Source: an uncultured Desulfospira sp. (lineage in GTDB: Bacteria > Desulfobacterota > Desulfobacteria > Desulfobacterales > Desulfobacteraceae). From it: 64,000 nt of DNA. The notes under the pieces were generated by a model. That model was not told where the DNA came from. It ran no database searches and saw only the letters and a program-made list of their open reading frames with translations. The number at the start of each line of letters is the position of its first letter. Position 1 is the stretch's first letter. Below are positions 50,129-62,766 of the stretch, in pieces. The stretch covers positions 2,688,001 to 2,752,000 of the forward strand of contig OY760175.1 in assembly GCA_963663165.1 (NCBI GenBank), written 5' to 3'. A program made the position numbers and the translations under genes.

Positions 50129-52102
50129 ATGAAACGCTTTTTGAAAGGCCTGGCAATCCCGGGCGTTTTTTTACTGGCCGCAGGGTTAATGCTCTGCGGA
50201 CCTGCGGGTGCCGTGGACTGTTCCGGGTGTTATGGTGAGGCGCTGTCTTTTTGCGGGATCGAAACCCCATTAGAAAATGAGGAATGCTTTCATTCAGAAT
50301 ACAGCTTCTGCCTGGAGTTCTGCTGTAAGGATGGATGTTATATGGATGTTGTTGATCCATGCCAGGTGACCTGTTATGAAAATTATTATTTATGTGAAAG
50401 TGCCTGCCATGACGATTGTGAGCAGCAATATTGTGGAGAAGAAGGGTGCGGGGAGGGATACGATCCATGTATGGGAGAGTGTACCTATTCCTGTGAACAG
50501 ACACGGGATGATTGCGGTTATCAGTGTGAATATGACAACCCGGAATTTGATTTATGTGTCACTGAGTGCCAGTCAGGAGGAGACATTGACGGGGATGGTG
50601 TTAGCGACGCCATCGACAACTGCGTTTACATCCCTAACCCGGGCCAGGATGATGCCGACGATGACTTCATCGGAGATGCCTGTGACAACTGCAGCAGCGT
50701 ATCCAATCCTTACCAGGAAGACGATGACGATGATTATGCCGGCAATGCCTGTGATCTGTGCCCTTGGGTATACAGCAATGCGCCTTATCAGGACACCGAC
50801 GGAGACGGGGAAGGAGATGCCTGTGATCCGGACATTGATGGGGACGGGCACCTCAATGAGTCGGACAACTGCCCCTTTGTATCCAACTATTTGCAGGAAG
50901 ATGCAGACGGGGACGGCATCGGCGATGCCTGCGATCTGACAGACATCCGGATCAGTGCAGCCTCTTATCAGACCCTGGACCTGTCCATGAAAAAGGCACC
51001 GGAACTGGACAGCCCGGAAAACGGCCATGCACTCTATGACATTTCTCCGGTCAGTCCTTTCATGGCCGCGGCGTTTGATATCAGCAGCGATGATTCAGAA
51101 CGGGTGGTGGGATGGTATGCCCCTGATACCGCGTTTGACAATGAACGGCGCGGATTTGTGTGGGGAGATGATTTTGACACCGATTCCAACACAGATGATG
51201 CCGTCCGGATTAAAATATCGGAAGAAAATGCTGACAATACCATGTTATGGGGAATCTACAACGACTCAAATTATGTAGGGCAGTACACTTTGGACGGTGT
51301 AAAACAAGGGGTGTGGGTACAACGGTCTTACGCACCGGAATTAGGACTTTATTCCTATTCATACCAGCCCCTGGTCCCGGATTTATCCGGTGCATACTCC
51401 AGCAGCGCCTGGGATTATGCTGTCGTGGACGGCTCCGTCAGCATTGTGGGCCGTTATTATAGCCAGACAACAGGGCAGGATCATGGCTATCTATACCAGC
51501 GGACGTACAGCCCCAACCTTACGGAAACCTATACCGCCATTAGCATGCCCGGGGCCAGTGGCACCTATGGCAGCGGCATTAACGACAACGGGCAGATTGT
51601 CGGGTACTACAGTGATGTGTCGGGTACCCACGGGTTTTTGTTTGACGGAACCAACTATGTCTCCATCAATGTTCCCGGGGCCGTCAGCACCCTGGCCTAC
51701 CGTATCAATAACCAGGAAGACATTTGCGGCTACTTTTTAGGAACGGACGAACAATACCACGGGTTTGTCTATTCAGGCACCCAATTTCAGACCTTTGACA
51801 TTGAAGGGGCCAAGGACACCTTTGCCTTTGGCCTCAATGATGACGGTAAAATTACCGGATACTTCAGAGATAAACTGGGCACCCACTCGTTTGTGGCACA
51901 GCCCCTTCCTGAAACTACTGTCTGCATAGGAGATTTTGACAATGACAATGACGTGGACAGTGAAGACCTTGGTGTTTTTGCGGGACTTTTCGGGGTGAGC
52001 GGCAGTGAAAGCCCTGCAGACATTGCCGCTCCTTCGGACAATGATGTGGACGGCCTGGATTTGGCCAAGTTTATCACCTGCCTGACCACGGGATGTCCCT
52101 AA
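50129..52102 (+). CDS. Secreted protein: Cys-rich region, thrombospondin type-3 repeats, beta-repeat domain, dockerin-like C-terminus
   Basis: Signal peptide, DxDGDGxxDxCDNC…N..Q.D repeats, GIND.GQIVG.Y…HGF repeats, [12 protein letters not shown]. Confidence 0.8.
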
Positions 52103-56617: not shown

Positions 56618-58693
56618 TTAGTTTTCAGTCTCCAGCTTCCGGTCTCCAGTCTCCGGTTTCCGGTCTCCTGTTTCATACCCCATTGGCAGCTTCTTGAACC
56701 GGCCGCCGTAAATAATGGGATCACCCTTATACCCCAGGGCTTTAAAGTTAATATAATCGGTTTTGTTGATCAGGTGTTCCACATCCCTTCCCTTGGATTT
56801 CATAAAGGAAAAGTCGGTTCCCTTCTGGGCAATGGCTTTAAAATCCACATTCCGGTTATCCTGGTGGCACCGGTTGCAGGTTTGATCGCCCTTCAGGCTT
56901 TCATGGCACTGGACACAGGACAGGGCCATGTCTGCGGGCATGACTTCATGCTCTAAGCGCCAGTACATCCAGGTCTCTTTCCATTTGTATGATCCGGAGT
57001 AGGGCAGGTCCACGGCGTTCATGCCGTCCTCAAAGGCCTTGTCCCAGTCCAGGTTTTTCCAGTAAGCGGTTTTGTCCTCCTTGTTTCTGGGAAACAGGTG
57101 GGGAATCAGGATGGTTTCATGGTCCGCATCCACGGCCTGGATGCCTTTCATGATCTTGAAGGGCGTGATTTTGGACGAGGGATCCTTCATAGAGCCCACC
57201 GGTGTCGTCAGGTTGATGACAGCGGCATTGAGATCCACGGTATCCCCCATGAGAACCCGGTCCATATATCCTGAATACCACTGATAATCCGGGACAGCGG
57301 ATTCCTCCCATTTAAACTCGCCTTTTTTCCAGTCATAGTCCGGCTTTCCGTACTTATCCATCTGGGGTTTTCTCTTTTTGTCCCCGGCCTTGGACCAGTC
57401 CCAGAAGGTCTTGGTGGGCTTGCACTTGGCAAACACAGGGGAATGGCAGACATTGCAGTCCAGGGTTTTGCTGTGGCTGTTCAGGTGATGATCTAAGAGG
57501 CCGCCGCTGTAATGGGGCGCCTCACCATGACAGTTTTCGCATGACACCGCCCCCTCGGCCACAGGGACCGACGTACTGCGGCCGGAAATTTTATGGTTCC
57601 GGGTCTTATGGCATTCAGTACAGGCAAAATCATATCCGCCCATGTGAATGTCACAGCTTCGTTCAGGGTTGAGCAGCTGCCGGGACATGTCGGCGTGTTT
57701 GATGGCGTCCCCGCCCCCGCCGTTAAAGTGGCAGGAACCGCAGGAAGCCCGGCCGGAATGCCCCACGTTCTGGGCCACCATTTTCAAATCCACCTCTTTT
57801 TTGGGCATGCCGGCTCCCGGCGGGTCTTTCTGGTAAGTGCCCGTGGTGTCGTGGCAGACCAGGCAGTCCATTTTTGTCTTATCGGTAAAATCAAAGTTTG
57901 CGTCTTTCCATCCATATCCGGCATGACAGCTTGTGCAACGAGCCTCGTTGCTGATGGGGCTGATTCAATAGTTGTTCAGGGCCGTGGTGCCCTTGCCGTG
58001 CAGGATGTCCTTTCGATGCCCCGTGGTATAAGGTGAAGGGCCTTTCCAGAGCCAGTGGGCGCTTGTCAGCATGTCTTCTGCCTGGGTGTCGTGGCACCTG
58101 AGGCATTCTGCCGTAACCTGAAAGGGATCAGCACCGTCGGGCAGGTTGACCAGTTCTTTGTGGTTGGGAACATTTTTTAAATGGCATCCCTTGCAGTCTG
58201 TGGGCCCTTTGGCCTCATCCTTGTGGCATTCCATGCACTGCTGGTGGTAGGCGGCTTTCAGCCCGATCCGTTCGGGATGGTCTTCATCAAAGGCCTCCTG
58301 GTGGCAGGCCGAACACCGTGTGGTTTCTAGGGCAGCCTCATCTTTTGGCCGGTAATGATGGCATTTGGTGCAGTCCTGAATCAGGGCCGCATGCCGTTTA
58401 TGGGCAAACCGTACCGGTTCGTAATGGTCTTCTCTTTGTTTGATGACGGGGCTGTCCAGGAGAAAATAAACATCGGTAATATCTGATAAAGACAGGCCCT
58501 CTTTTAAAAGACGCATCTTGCGGGCGATCTGGTCTTCATTTTTGTACTCACTGACAAAGGGGACCGTTTCCAGGGTCCTTGCCTTGGCCGCTTCCTGGTC
58601 CGGGGCACGCCAATCCTTGGCGGCCAGGCAGACAGCGGTTTGCAAAAGCAGCAAACTCAACATTATGAGCCCAACCGTTAAGTTCCTATTCAT
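56618..58693 (-). CDS. 13-heme c-type cytochrome (c3-like domain fused to octaheme tetrathionate reductase family) with in-frame UGA at 57965-57967
   Basis: The two ORFs are in one frame separated by a single TGA (LNNY*ISPISNEARCTSCH). 13 CxxCH motifs, signal peptide, 691 aa if read through. Confidence 0.85.
57926..57964 (-). promoter_or_regulatory. Candidate bacterial SECIS element
   Basis: GCAACGA-GGC-UCGUUGC hairpin begins 14 nt after the UGA; possible lower CAGC/GCUG stem. Confidence 0.6.
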
Positions 58694-59886
58694 GATACCT
58701 CCTTGGTTGTTTGCAAAACAGGTAAATAGGTTACAACAATCCTGTAAATGAACATCAGCGTGGCAATCAGGCCGAAGGTCACCATCATTTCCCCGATGGA
58801 GGGGAAATAGCCCGGATCACTCAAGGGCGGTTTAAACCCCACAATGAACACGTTGATCCGGTTGAGCACCACACCGCCCACAATGAGGGTGGCCGCTGTG
58901 AAAACCCCTTTTCGGGAGGTTCTTATTTTTTTGGCCAGCAGCATGGCCCAGGGAATCATAACCCCGAATACCATTTCCACGATAAAGGAATTGGTCTGGG
59001 CGGTCCCGTCCAAAAGATAGGTCCAGGTGCCCCGCACTGCCATATCCCCGATTTTCAGGGCCATGTAAATTCCCAGGAGGACAATGGTGATCCGGGTCAG
59101 CGGCGACAGGATATTCATTTCAGAGTCCAGTTTAAACGAGGAGGTGGCAAGGGTGGTTTCAAATACCACCATGGGATACCCCACGGCAAAGGCCGAGGTT
59201 AAAAACAGCAGGGGCAGGATGGGCGTGTACCACAGGGGATGCAGTTTGGTGGGGGCAATGAGCATCAAAGACCCAAGGCTTGACTGGTGCATGCAGGACA
59301 GCACCACCCCCAGGATGATCAATATCCACATGATTTTGTCCACTATGGCGTCTCCGATTTTCAGGACCGCTTCGATCAGGCCGTTGAGTCCGGCAAAGGG
59401 GCCGGGCAGGTTCACCCGCCCCTTGAACTGTTCGGCCACGATGGGGAAAAATTCAAGGTAAAGCACATTCAGGTAGCACATGACACACATGGCCACCTCA
59501 AATAGAACCGAGTTGGGGTTCCAGTTGAACATGGGCTTCCAGATGGCCCAGGACCGGCCAATGTCCACCATGAGCCCCAAGACCACAAAGGTGTAGCCAA
59601 GGACTGCCGTCAACAGGGCCGGCCGGGTGACGGGTTCGTAATAATGGCGGCCGAAGATATGGGCCAGGGCGGCGGTGGTAAATCCGCCGGCGGCCAGGGC
59701 CACCCCGGTGGCCACATCCACGCCGACCCACAGGCCCCAGGGCCTGGCCGTACTCAGGTTGGCCACATAGCCGATACCGCCGGTAAACCGGGCCATGATG
59801 GCGGCAAAACCAGCCGCCATAAAGGCCAGCATGACCAGGACCCCCGGGGTCCAGAAGGGCCTGTTTAAGGGACTTGCTTTATGCAT
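58690..59886 (-). CDS. NrfD/HybB/HmcC-type membrane subunit
   Basis: [41 protein letters not shown]. Confidence 0.9.
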
Positions 59887-60802
59887 GGCCGCCTCCTTTC
59901 TCGTCTTTATTTTTGCCGTCAGCCTTGTTGAAACCGAACATGGCAACCCCGAGCAGCCCAAACAGGGCGATGGGGGACCACAGGTAGCTGAACAGGGAAT
60001 GCTGGATGGTTTCGGACAGCTCTGGAGACGGTTTGTCCGGCAGGACCGGCAGGTTGACCTTTTCAAAGGGAACCGCTGAAATATAAAGCCAGGACGTGCC
60101 GCCCACCTCTTTTTCCCCGTAAATATGGTTAATGTATTTGCCCGGGTTTTGAGTTACCCGTTTTCTGGCCACCTTGAGCAGGGTCTCTCTTTTGCCGAAG
60201 GTCAGGGCTTCGGTGGGGCAAATGGTGGCGCACCCGGGAAGCCCGCCGTCTTTTGAGATCCGGTCGTAGCAGAAGGTGCATTTCATGACCTTGGGGGTGA
60301 CCGGGTCAAAATATTCATAGGCCGGGATTTCAAAGGGGCAGGCCACCATGCAGTACCGGCACCCGATGCACTTGTCGGCATTGTACCGGACAGCGCCGGT
60401 TTCATCTTTGGTCAGGGCCCCCACAATACAGGCCGACACGCAGGCCGGGTCCTGGCAGTGCATGCACTGGACCTTGGCAAAGGTGGGCAACGGTTTGTCA
60501 AACTGGTCCAGCTGCCCTGTGAAATACCGGTTGACCACGGTATAAGCCTTGTCATCGGGCCGTCGTTTTTTCTCAAAGATGGTACACTGGCAGTTGGGCC
60601 GTTCCGGGGCCGGCAAATGGTTCACCTGGGCACAGGCTTCCTCGCATTTGCGGCAGCCCACGCACCGGGTCAGGTCCACCAGGCACCCGTAAGGATCCGG
60701 GGGCGCTTTGGACTTCCAGGCGTTGGCAGATGAAGGCGTTGCCGCGACGGTTGCGCCGGCGGCCCCCATGAATTTGAAAAAACTTCTTCGGGTCAGTTGC
60801 AT
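59879..60802 (-). CDS. Tat-exported 4Fe-4S subunit (HybA/HmcB-like)
   Basis: TRRSFFK signal, [37 protein letters not shown]. Confidence 0.9.
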
Positions 60803-60895: not shown

Positions 60896-61132
60896 TTAGC
60901 TTCCGGTTCCCTTCCGGATACCAAGGCAGATACAATCGGGTTGTTTCCGGTGATATAGCAGTTCATCCTCTGACCGCAGGATGATGGTGGCCAGGGTTTT
61001 TGCCACCTCCTCATCTTTCAGGATGACCTCAAGACGTTCACCTTTTGCCATGGCGCTCAGACGGCTTTTGCACTTGAAAAGATCAAGGGGGGAAACAATG
61101 CCCCGCAAATCCAGAACAAGTTTTGCCGCCAT
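60896..61132 (-). CDS. TusA/SirA-like protein
   Basis: LDLRGIVSPL…M.KGE.LEV…IRK; AGGAGG RBS; the usual CP is SP here. Confidence 0.65.
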   Translation of the reverse strand: MAAKLVLDLRGIVSPLDLFKCKSRLSAMAKGERLEVILKDEEVAKTLATIILRSEDELLYHRKQPDCICLGIRKGTGS

Positions 61133-61368: not shown

Positions 61369-62766
61369 ATGGACGAACATGAGATGAACGTCTTCTGGAA
61401 AAAGATTGTGAACACCATCAACGACGGCCTGTTGTTCATTGGGCCGGACGGGTCCATTTTAATGGTGAACAAAGCCTTTGAAACCCTGACCGGGTATGCT
61501 TCGGATGAGGCCATCGGCATGTCCTGCCGGATCCTGGGGTGCGATGCCTGTGAACAGGCCCTGAAAACCGGCAAAACATCGGTCTGGTGCAAGTTGTTTG
61601 AACCGGGCCGGCAAGGGATGAACAAGTGCCGCTGTCTGCTCAGGCGAAAGGACGGCAGTTTTTTCCCGGTACTCAAAAATGCGTCCATCTTTAAAGATGA
61701 AAACGAGAATATACTGGGCGTTGTGGAGACCCTCACCGATATATCGGAAATAGAACGCCTGGATGAAAAGGTTCATATGCTGTCCCGTCAATACGGGAGG
61801 GACAGTGATTTTTACGGTATGGTGGGCAAATCACGGCAAATGGAGGCCGTGTTTGAAATGGTCCGCAAGGCTTCTGATTCGGCCGCCCCGGTGATCATCT
61901 TGGGGGAAAGCGGATCAGGCAAGGAGCTGGTGGCCGATGCCATCCACCTGTCCGGGGCCAGAAAAAAAGGCCCCTTTATCCGGCTCAACTGCGCGGCCCT
62001 GAACCCGTCGATTCTTGAAAGTGAGATGTTCGGCCATGCCAAAGGGGCTTTCACCGGGGCCTATGACAACCGCATCGGCCGGTTTGAGGCGGCGGACACG
62101 GGCAGCTTTTTTTTAGATGAAATCGGCGACATGCCCCTGCCCTTGCAGACCAAGCTGCTGCGGGTCCTTGAATCCGGGCAGTTTGAACGGGTAGGGGAGA
62201 TCGATCCCGTCCGGGTGGATGTCAGGATCATTACCGCCACCAACAAAAATCTGGAAGACCTGATCCAAAAAAATGAATTCCGGCAGGACCTGTTTTACCG
62301 GATCAATGTTTTGCCCATTCATCTGCCTCCCTTGAGGGAAAGAAAAGAGGACATCCCGTTGCTGGTCAACGCCTTTATCGGGCGGCTGAACCAGGCGTCG
62401 GGCAAAACCGTCACCAGGGTGAGCCGGGAGGCCATGGACCAGTTCATGGACCACACCTTTCCGGGCAATGTCCGGGAGTTAAAAAATGCTTTGGAGTACG
62501 CCTTTGTCACGGCCGACGGCCCGGTGATCCGTCTGGAACATCTGCCCAAATCCATGGCCCCGGCCGGGCCGGAACCACAGGTTTCTTTGCCGGAAACCAC
62601 CCCCCCGGAAAAGATTTTAGATGAAAAACAGCAGCTCATTAACGCCCTGAAAAAAACCAACGGAAATCAGACCCAGGCGGCCCGTCTGTTAAAGGTCAAC
62701 CGGGTCACGGTCTGGAACCGCATGAAAAAATACGGCATTGATCTTAAAAAAACATTGGCATGCTGA
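61369..62766 (+). CDS. PAS-containing sigma54-dependent activator
   Basis: PAS, GESGSGKE, GAFTGA, FLDEIG, FPGNVREL, Fis-type HTH. Confidence 0.95.
   Translation: MDEHEMNVFWKKIVNTINDGLLFIGPDGSILMVNKAFETLTGYASDEAIGMSCRILGCDACEQALKTGKTSVWCKLFEPGRQGMNKCRCLLRRKDGSFFPVLKNASIFKDENENILGVVETLTDISEIERLDEKVHMLSRQYGRDSDFYGMVGKSRQMEAVFEMVRKASDSAAPVIILGESGSGKELVADAIHLSGARKKGPFIRLNCAALNPSILESEMFGHAKGAFTGAYDNRIGRFEAADTGSFFLDEIGDMPLPLQTKLLRVLESGQFERVGEIDPVRVDVRIITATNKNLEDLIQKNEFRQDLFYRINVLPIHLPPLRERKEDIPLLVNAFIGRLNQASGKTVTRVSREAMDQFMDHTFPGNVRELKNALEYAFVTADGPVIRLEHLPKSMAPAGPEPQVSLPETTPPEKILDEKQQLINALKKTNGNQTQAARLLKVNRVTVWNRMKKYGIDLKKTLAC

Follow-up and report, generated by a model that had tools for sequence, protein, structure and literature searches.

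The window, a stretch of 64,000 nt from an uncultured Desulfospira sp., contains a gene for a 13-heme c-type cytochrome of the OTR family whose reading frame is interrupted by an in-frame TGA at codon 243, almost certainly decoded as selenocysteine by SelB via an adjacent SECIS hairpin. The gene lies on the minus strand (58693–56618) and has 691 codons, with an N-terminal export signal, judged by eye, and the Sec codon at 57967–57965 (minus). An earlier sequence-only reading of this DNA had described one in-frame TGA with open frame on both sides, and translation of the minus strand bears this out: the single internal stop is the TGA at codon 243, in the context LNNY*ISPISNEARCTSCH, and translation table 11 breaks the frame into ORFs of 242 and 417 aa. 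Contigs of sequencing runs X1 and X2 do not differ in a single letter from window positions 57929–58409, TGA included; the runs represent one sample, possibly the source of the assembly itself. The 13 CxxCH motifs are grouped as that reading proposed, with four c3-like motifs (residues 108, 127, 153 and 167), eight OTR motifs (197, 253, 277, 318, 358, 385, 413 and 593) and one additional C-terminal motif (606).

The SECIS hairpin (57935–57951, minus) has the form GCAACGA-GGC-TCGTTGC, begins 13 bases past the TGA and folds at −9.0 kcal/mol, with a 7-bp stem and a GGC loop at 57944–57942 (+21 to +23). The G-containing loop at 21 nt had been taken from the sequence as typical of bacterial SECIS elements; the hairpin indeed lies within all of the constraints summarized for such elements in a 2026 review (loop 3–9 nt, stem 4–16 bp, G in loop positions 1–2, spacing 16–37 nt and MFE ≤ −7.5; PMC13188914). 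Synonymous recoding of the corresponding 20-residue stretch gives such a hairpin in only 13 of 20,000 cases, and a comparable one follows 14 of the 670 codon positions in the cytochrome gene. The genome has 26 TGAs preceded by ≥200 and followed by ≥300 open codons; a hairpin is present by a looser rule in four of these, including the cytochrome TGA and two in putative formate dehydrogenase Sec motifs. The 53-nt SECIS region itself shows no unusual folding stability (z −0.26, with 83 of 200 shuffles as stable). Because folding energy alone is unremarkable here, the Sec reading rests on conservation of the hairpin.

At E ≤1e-40 the cytochrome is matched in 190 of 301 genomes of the same order, its own genome included. 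We scored 162 loci, comprising the 30 best of the 301-genome search, 72 from a GTDB scan and 60 that were hand-picked to sample stand-alone, Cys-type and long forms; the genomes are related rather than independent and the counts are descriptive. Column 243 is covered in 160 loci, of which 110 have TGA, 32 TGC, 15 TGT, 2 CTC and 1 is frameshifted, with neither TAA nor TAG at this column in any of the 160. Removal of duplicates leaves 151 distinct loci (104 TGA, 44 Cys, 2 Leu and 1 frameshifted), and the sets assembled without hand-picking hold 91 distinct loci (79 TGA, 11 Cys and 1 frameshifted). Cultured species are represented as well: Desulfosarcina variabilis and D. widdelii (L102 and L108) have the TGA form, and Desulfospira joergensenii (L062) has a Cys orthologue. 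The same 17-nt hairpin occurs at the same offset in 98 of the 104 distinct TGA loci and in none of the 44 Cys loci. The comparison of homologues proposed in the sequence-only reading, for a Cys/UGA mix and a conserved SECIS, thus yields both, with the hairpin confined to TGA loci. Among the remaining TGA loci, one has a hairpin altered in the loop only and five are stand-alone OTRs of a separate clade, where a different hairpin is located ∼4 nt further on. Other stand-alone OTRs retain the same hairpin at merely ∼40% identity to the query. Across the phylum, the TGA-plus-hairpin pattern was detected in 8 of 301 genomes; two of the eight belong to other orders, where the gene is of the 13-heme type, and there were no control matches.

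Support for a functional RNA element also comes from codon usage in 146 aligned rows, from which five frameshifted or truncated loci were left out. In the TGA genes (100 rows), codons 243 and 249–253 alone are at least 95% fixed to one codon among 146 columns with a conserved amino acid, where the median is 0.62; in the Cys genes (44 rows), none of 125 conserved columns is fixed to this extent. The 3′ arm of the hairpin overlaps the codons of the CTSCH heme II motif. Residue 251 is Ala in 94% of the TGA genes and Pro in 40 of the 44 Cys genes, and the RNA element therefore constrains the protein. The stem is invariant, which makes base-pair covariation uninformative for this SECIS.

On a tree built without columns 243–252, the U/C label requires 11 changes, at least 8 of which are forced by well-supported branches, and intact Cys genes fall inside groups of TGA genes. 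A tree in which the Sec forms make up one clade of single origin is rejected (p-AU 2e-73, for a hand-chosen 41-row subset and an unrooted tree). Loss of the Sec system as the cause of the Cys forms can also be set aside, since selA is no discriminator between Sec and Cys forms: selA was found in 79 of 80 and 20 of 20 genomes searched, the Cys-form genomes keep it, Cys forms are common in selA-bearing genomes and the sole genome without a selA match is of the TGA type (G249, 95% complete). Leu or Ala occupies the Sec/Cys column in 11 of 114 proteins parsed from the best 120 database matches. From these variants and from the Cys forms in selA-bearing genomes, it follows that neither selenium nor sulfur is indispensable in every subfamily.

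The host genome (6.74 Mb, 96.7% complete) carries selA, selB, selC and selD, as the sequence-only reading had suggested be confirmed. The selB (349 bits), selA (604 bits) and selD (366 bits) genes are each the single match over cut-off, and the tRNA-Sec is the only RF01852 match over cut-off in the genome (75.3 bits). A default tRNA scan gives one UCA tRNA among 49, a canonical tRNA-Sec with an 8-bp acceptor stem, a G discriminator and a long variable arm. What had been named as fatal to the selenocysteine reading, a genome lacking the machinery together with close homologues all carrying TGC or TGT, is the opposite of what we find, with a complete machinery and close homologues that mostly have TGA. 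The selD gene of the host itself has an in-frame TGA, as do two of nine FlpD/MvhD matches in the genome. Further probable selenoproteins in G000:C1 are the SelD at 4859732–4860658 (+), the MvhD/FlpD proteins at 427367–427735 (−) and 3151211–3151579 (−), and two near 6426401 (+) and 1061338 (−), in putative formate dehydrogenase motifs that we take to be the Sec sites of this enzyme.

Two other interpretations of the TGA have to be weighed against decoding as selenocysteine. The codon could be read as Cys by a special UCA-anticodon tRNA-Cys, as in the selC*/SelB* system, which we take to operate in some Desulfobacterales. Cys is the alternative residue at column 243, and a relaxed ARAGORN run gives six more UCA candidates among ∼240 lines of a noisy scan, but none of the six is among the RF01852 matches, the sole UCA tRNA of the default scan is the canonical tRNA-Sec and one SelB is over cut-off, so that we consider UGA-to-Cys decoding very unlikely. 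It is most improbable that the TGA is a real stop that parts two proteins, or that it arose by nonsense mutation or by an error in sequencing. The ordinary folding energy of the hairpin region would fit a real stop, as would the presence in databases of the downstream part as a separate protein; however, the split would put Lys234 and heme I on one protein and heme II on another, leaving the downstream part devoid of an export signal, and neither the frequency of TGA at a column free of TAA and TAG (110 of 160 aligned loci) nor the nesting of intact Cys genes among TGA genes is expected of a stop. The selenocysteine reading made from the sequence thus holds, on a complete decoding machinery and a hairpin that tracks the TGA.

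The expectation that annotation pipelines would split the gene is borne out in the protein collection searched. Among the best 120 protein matches (380–1210 aa), three pieces of 399–403 aa start after the UGA column and are without heme II, and the clusters to which they belong contain further such pieces; no sequence among these 120 contains a U, although the collection may display U as C. The family is not, however, hidden from curators: a Sec-containing TIGR04315 protein is listed as GenBank-annotated, with one Sec per protein (PMC13188914).

The octaheme OTR domain spans residues 178–599 (56897–58162, minus), of which residues 189–599 match TIGR04315 with 489.8 bits (cut-off 375). An alignment to PDB 1sp3 (E 1.7e-117) equates K234 with Lys56, U243 with Cys64 and C253–H257 with C74–H78, and so places the TGA at the OTR cysteine that precedes the catalytic heme motif, where it had been assigned from recall of the family. 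Lys56 and C74–H78 are named for heme II of OTR (PMC3769277), and by alignment Lys234 (57992–57994, minus) would be the axial ligand of the catalytic heme II and CTSCH (residues 253–257; 57923–57937, minus) its attachment motif, with U243 between the two. Lys234 and the heme II motif are each conserved in 146 of 146 rows, and U or C is present at column 243 in 144 of 146. Cys64 is the sole Cys outside the CxxCH motifs in 1sp3 residues 4–416, and the legend of Supplementary Figure 14 in 10.1101/2023.04.20.537704 includes a cysteine among the OTR catalytic-site features. Selection for Sec that is strong enough to freeze five codons and to alter a neighboring residue suggests that the side chain at the Cys64 position is chemically active.

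For structural comparison we used an AlphaFold2 model based on a 57-row alignment (pLDDT 76.3, pTM 0.80); a single-sequence model (pLDDT 32.9) was discarded. The alignment-based model superimposes on 1sp3 with a TM score of 0.89 on the target, a Z of 38.1 and an rmsd of 2.1 Å over 421 residues. Upstream of the OTR domain, a tetraheme class III domain similar to c3, TmcA and HmcA occupies residues 89–171 (58181–58429, minus) and is the predicted docking site of the Fe–S subunit. The 13th heme motif, CNRCH (residues 606–610; 56864–56878, minus), looks real from sequence co-occurrence, because its likely distal ligand, His403 (57487–57485), occurs in all 108 rows with the motif and in none of the 38 without it. 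Cys347 and Cys424, each of which accompanies the motif in 100 of 108 rows, may be linked as a disulfide. The final codons of the gene (window 56639–56668) derive from a short dispersed repeat, with 28 genome copies at ≤3 mismatches, which extends the C-terminus by ∼14 residues beyond that of the homologues.

The cytochrome gene comes last in a conserved operon of the sigma54 type, behind those of two probable partner subunits, all on the minus strand. An NrfD-family membrane subunit similar to HybB and HmcC (58690–59886) has a stop that overlaps the cytochrome start (ATGA), and a 4Fe–4S subunit similar to HybA and HmcB (59879–60802) has a twin-arginine leader and matches the HybA model with 276 bits (cut-off 263). 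The first gene of the operon (60896–61132) encodes a 78-aa TusA-like protein, with a PF01206 score of 29.0 bits, just above the cut-off of 28.6. What we take to be the canonical TusA persulfide motif, CPxP, has no cysteine here, where Ser stands in its place; the sequence is S-P-L in this protein and in most of its homologues. Upstream of this gene is a site scored by consensus as a sigma54-type −24/−12 promoter (61190–61175, minus), and a divergent gene for a PAS/sigma54 enhancer-binding protein (61369–62766, plus) is likely to encode the activator of the operon. A promoter consensus score of at least 10 is reached upstream in 32 of 71 homologous loci versus 1 of 71 control stretches, and a strict sigma54 pattern is matched in only 9 of 68 loci.

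Where at least 3.4 kb of flanking sequence is available, all 49 TGA and all 21 Cys or Leu fusion loci have the Fe–S and NrfD genes upstream, and the TusA-like gene opens the operon in 23 of the 49 TGA loci. No NrfD gene was found near any of the 18 stand-alone Sec loci with enough flank. Four of four relatives of ∼1,090 aa that were inspected are single NrfD–c3–OTR chains. In a complex prediction for a Cys orthologue (L054, 86% identical) and its Fe–S subunit, the score is 0.73 versus 0.00 for the best control; this score, which was computed with the orthologue rather than the UGA protein, may mirror likeness to solved cytochrome/Fe–S complexes. The mark set for the score is reached by 116 of 157 solved complexes and by 2 of 215 mismatched pairs. 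The runs agree in at least 85% of contacts, with a partner pLDDT of 85–86 and an interface on the c3 domain, and the prediction supports binding of the cytochrome to the Fe–S subunit. Because of the natural NrfD fusions and this prediction, we favor one periplasmic, quinone-linked assembly: the cytochrome is very probably the catalytic subunit of a periplasm-facing, three-part complex with the Tat-exported 4Fe–4S protein and the NrfD-type membrane protein, and would be coupled to the quinone pool. Loci L158–L161 and open frames of ∼1,095 aa encode NrfD–c3–OTR fusions with 12 CxxCH motifs, and the four inspected are all of the Cys type.

Judged by sequence, the cytochrome belongs to the OTR family and is a bacterial selenoprotein, and the selenoprotein status of the family is already catalogued: the Sec record in the 2026 review belongs to the same family model, TIGR04315, and is tabulated there without motif, position, architecture or reference (PMC13188914). 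We found no biochemical or other experimental study of a Sec OTR or of the 13-heme complex in the literature searched, which largely leaves out subscription journals. Shewanella oneidensis OTR (SO4144, PDB 1SP3) shares the eight hemes, the Lys56/heme II site and the fold. In the cytochrome described here, by contrast, Sec stands in for Cys64, a c3 domain and a 13th heme are added, the latter with a His of its own, and Cys347 and Cys424 are conserved in addition; its gene is part of an Fe–S/NrfD operon, whereas Shewanella OTR is described as soluble (PMC12949373). OTR has been called a structural outlier among the multiheme enzymes of nitrogen and sulfur metabolism (PMC9250108).

A parallel in chemistry is offered by MccSep/ExtKL of Geobacter sulfurreducens, which uses Sec beside a heme for polysulfide reduction. 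It is likewise a periplasmic multiheme c-type selenoprotein from the Desulfobacterota, in which Sec and Cys forms are mixed and the SECIS follows the UGA directly (PMC13510729). MccSep, however, is described as a homotetramer with five hemes and a His/Cys-ligated active heme (PMC13510729). Identity with MccSep/ExtKL is ruled out by the 13 CxxCH motifs and by the lack of a match to the ExtKL model NF040886 among the five NCBIfam matches of the cytochrome, and the analogy is one of chemistry only. Hmc/Nhc/Ohc-type complexes of sulfate reducers and HybAB also combine a multiheme cytochrome with an HmcB/HybA-like Fe–S protein and an HmcC/HybB-like NrfD protein; here there are three core genes only, and the cytochrome carries a catalytic OTR domain. 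An Hmc equivalog was rejected, as HmcA (66.5 bits, cut-off 400), HmcB (345.5, cut-off 420) and HmcC (284.7, cut-off 550) are all below cut-off and the Hmc cytochrome has 16 hemes. The model for the nine-heme cytochrome (Nhc) scores 39.3 bits against a cut-off of 640.

The physiological substrate of the OTR family has been a question since 2004 and is described as unsettled, and 2026 genetics argues against tetrathionate, OTR of Shewanella ANA-3 not being needed for tetrathionate respiration (PMC12949373). Our best guess for the substrate class is reduction of a sulfur intermediate, favored by analogy with MccSep in spite of the unrelated fold, and we rate it at slightly under an even chance. 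According to this mechanism, UGA243 would be read as Sec by SelB with the help of the hairpin and the product exported as a 13-heme cytochrome. Electrons would pass between the quinone pool and NrfD, the Fe–S clusters, the c3 domain, the OTR heme chain and the Lys-ligated heme II, where the selenol at the Cys64 position would act as a nucleophile that cleaves or reduces the sulfur intermediate. Candidate substrates are polysulfide, a polythionate, thiosulfate or sulfite. The presence of dsrA in the genome of the sulfate-reducing host and of the TusA-like gene at the head of many of the operons counts toward a sulfur substrate; the lack of the canonical Cys in the TusA-like protein and the Leu/Ala variants at the Sec/Cys column count against one.

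The main rival on the substrate is that the same selenoprotein complex is a nitrite or hydroxylamine reductase, serving ammonification or nitrite detoxification, with the substrate bound at the open site of heme II and the Sec merely tuning this site or shielding it from oxidation. This would fit the in vitro activities of OTR, in which nitrite and hydroxylamine reduction dominate (PMC12949373); sulfite is what that study suggests. The nitrite reading would also fit the Leu/Ala variants and the lack of an NrfA match in the 96.7%-complete host genome. NrfA is rare throughout, however (4 of 26 genomes with Sec fusions, 3 of 19 with Cys fusions and 0 of 19 without an OTR match), with or without an OTR gene, so that there is no sign of replacement and the distribution does not discriminate. 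Strong selection for Sec, moreover, is usually the mark of chalcogen chemistry, and we consider nitrite or hydroxylamine reduction unlikely.

It is also conceivable, if similarly improbable, that the complex mainly transfers electrons or runs in the opposite direction; menaquinone would then be fed by Type I cytochrome c3 or by a sulfur compound oxidized at Sec/heme II, as is assumed for Nhc/Ohc-type complexes. The likeness of the subunits to HmcB/HybA and HmcC/HybB is consistent with such a reverse or electron-transfer role, as are the similarity of the c3 domain to the HmcA C-terminus and TmcA and the tabulation of Nhc and Ohc with TpIc3/MQ as assumed partners (PMC6491731, Table 3). In a pure wire there would be no need to keep Lys234, the heme II motif and U or C at column 243 nearly invariant over the 146 rows, and the wire-like OTR relative MmcA has lost heme II and the Lys (10.1101/2023.04.20.537704).

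Returning to sulfur-intermediate reduction, a broader proposal can be made more tentatively, as possible rather than probable: the cytochrome would belong to a quinone-linked respiratory complex, widespread in Desulfobacterales and uncharacterised, in which Sec and a Lys-ligated heme constitute the second class of multiheme selenoenzyme besides MccSep, with an evolutionary origin of its own, the Cys64 position is the OTR nucleophile and the true job of the family is reduction or disproportionation of sulfur intermediates. If so, the repeated natural Sec/Cys/Leu switches offer ready-made variants. In metagenomic studies of the sulfur cycle, OTR serves as a marker, and its Sec forms, which make up 79 of the 91 distinct closest loci, show up in protein collections as fragments without the catalytic heme.

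Several variants of the family are evident among the homologues. The Leu/Ala subfamily (L153 and L155; P0102, P0106, P0108–P0113 and P0118–P0120) keeps the heme II motif and is a candidate for a non-catalytic form or one with a different substrate. In the clade of stand-alone Sec OTRs with a different SECIS hairpin (L122, L124, L125, L128 and L134), the heme II motif is closely preceded by another Cys (CxCxxCH), and a Sec–Cys redox pair is possible there; the genome of L122 also has a 13-heme Sec form. In three other stand-alone Sec OTRs (L127, L129 and L177), the C-terminal tail is hydrophobic and the next gene encodes a cytochrome b-like membrane protein of ∼215 aa, which looks like a different route to the membrane. 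In loci L056, L107, L112, L156 and L181, the frame shifts or ends prematurely close to the TGA or past it, reflecting assembly errors or decay. Elsewhere in the window, positions 50129–52102 (plus) encode an exported protein of 657 aa that is rich in Cys at its N-terminus, contains thrombospondin type 3 repeats and is unrelated to the cytochrome.
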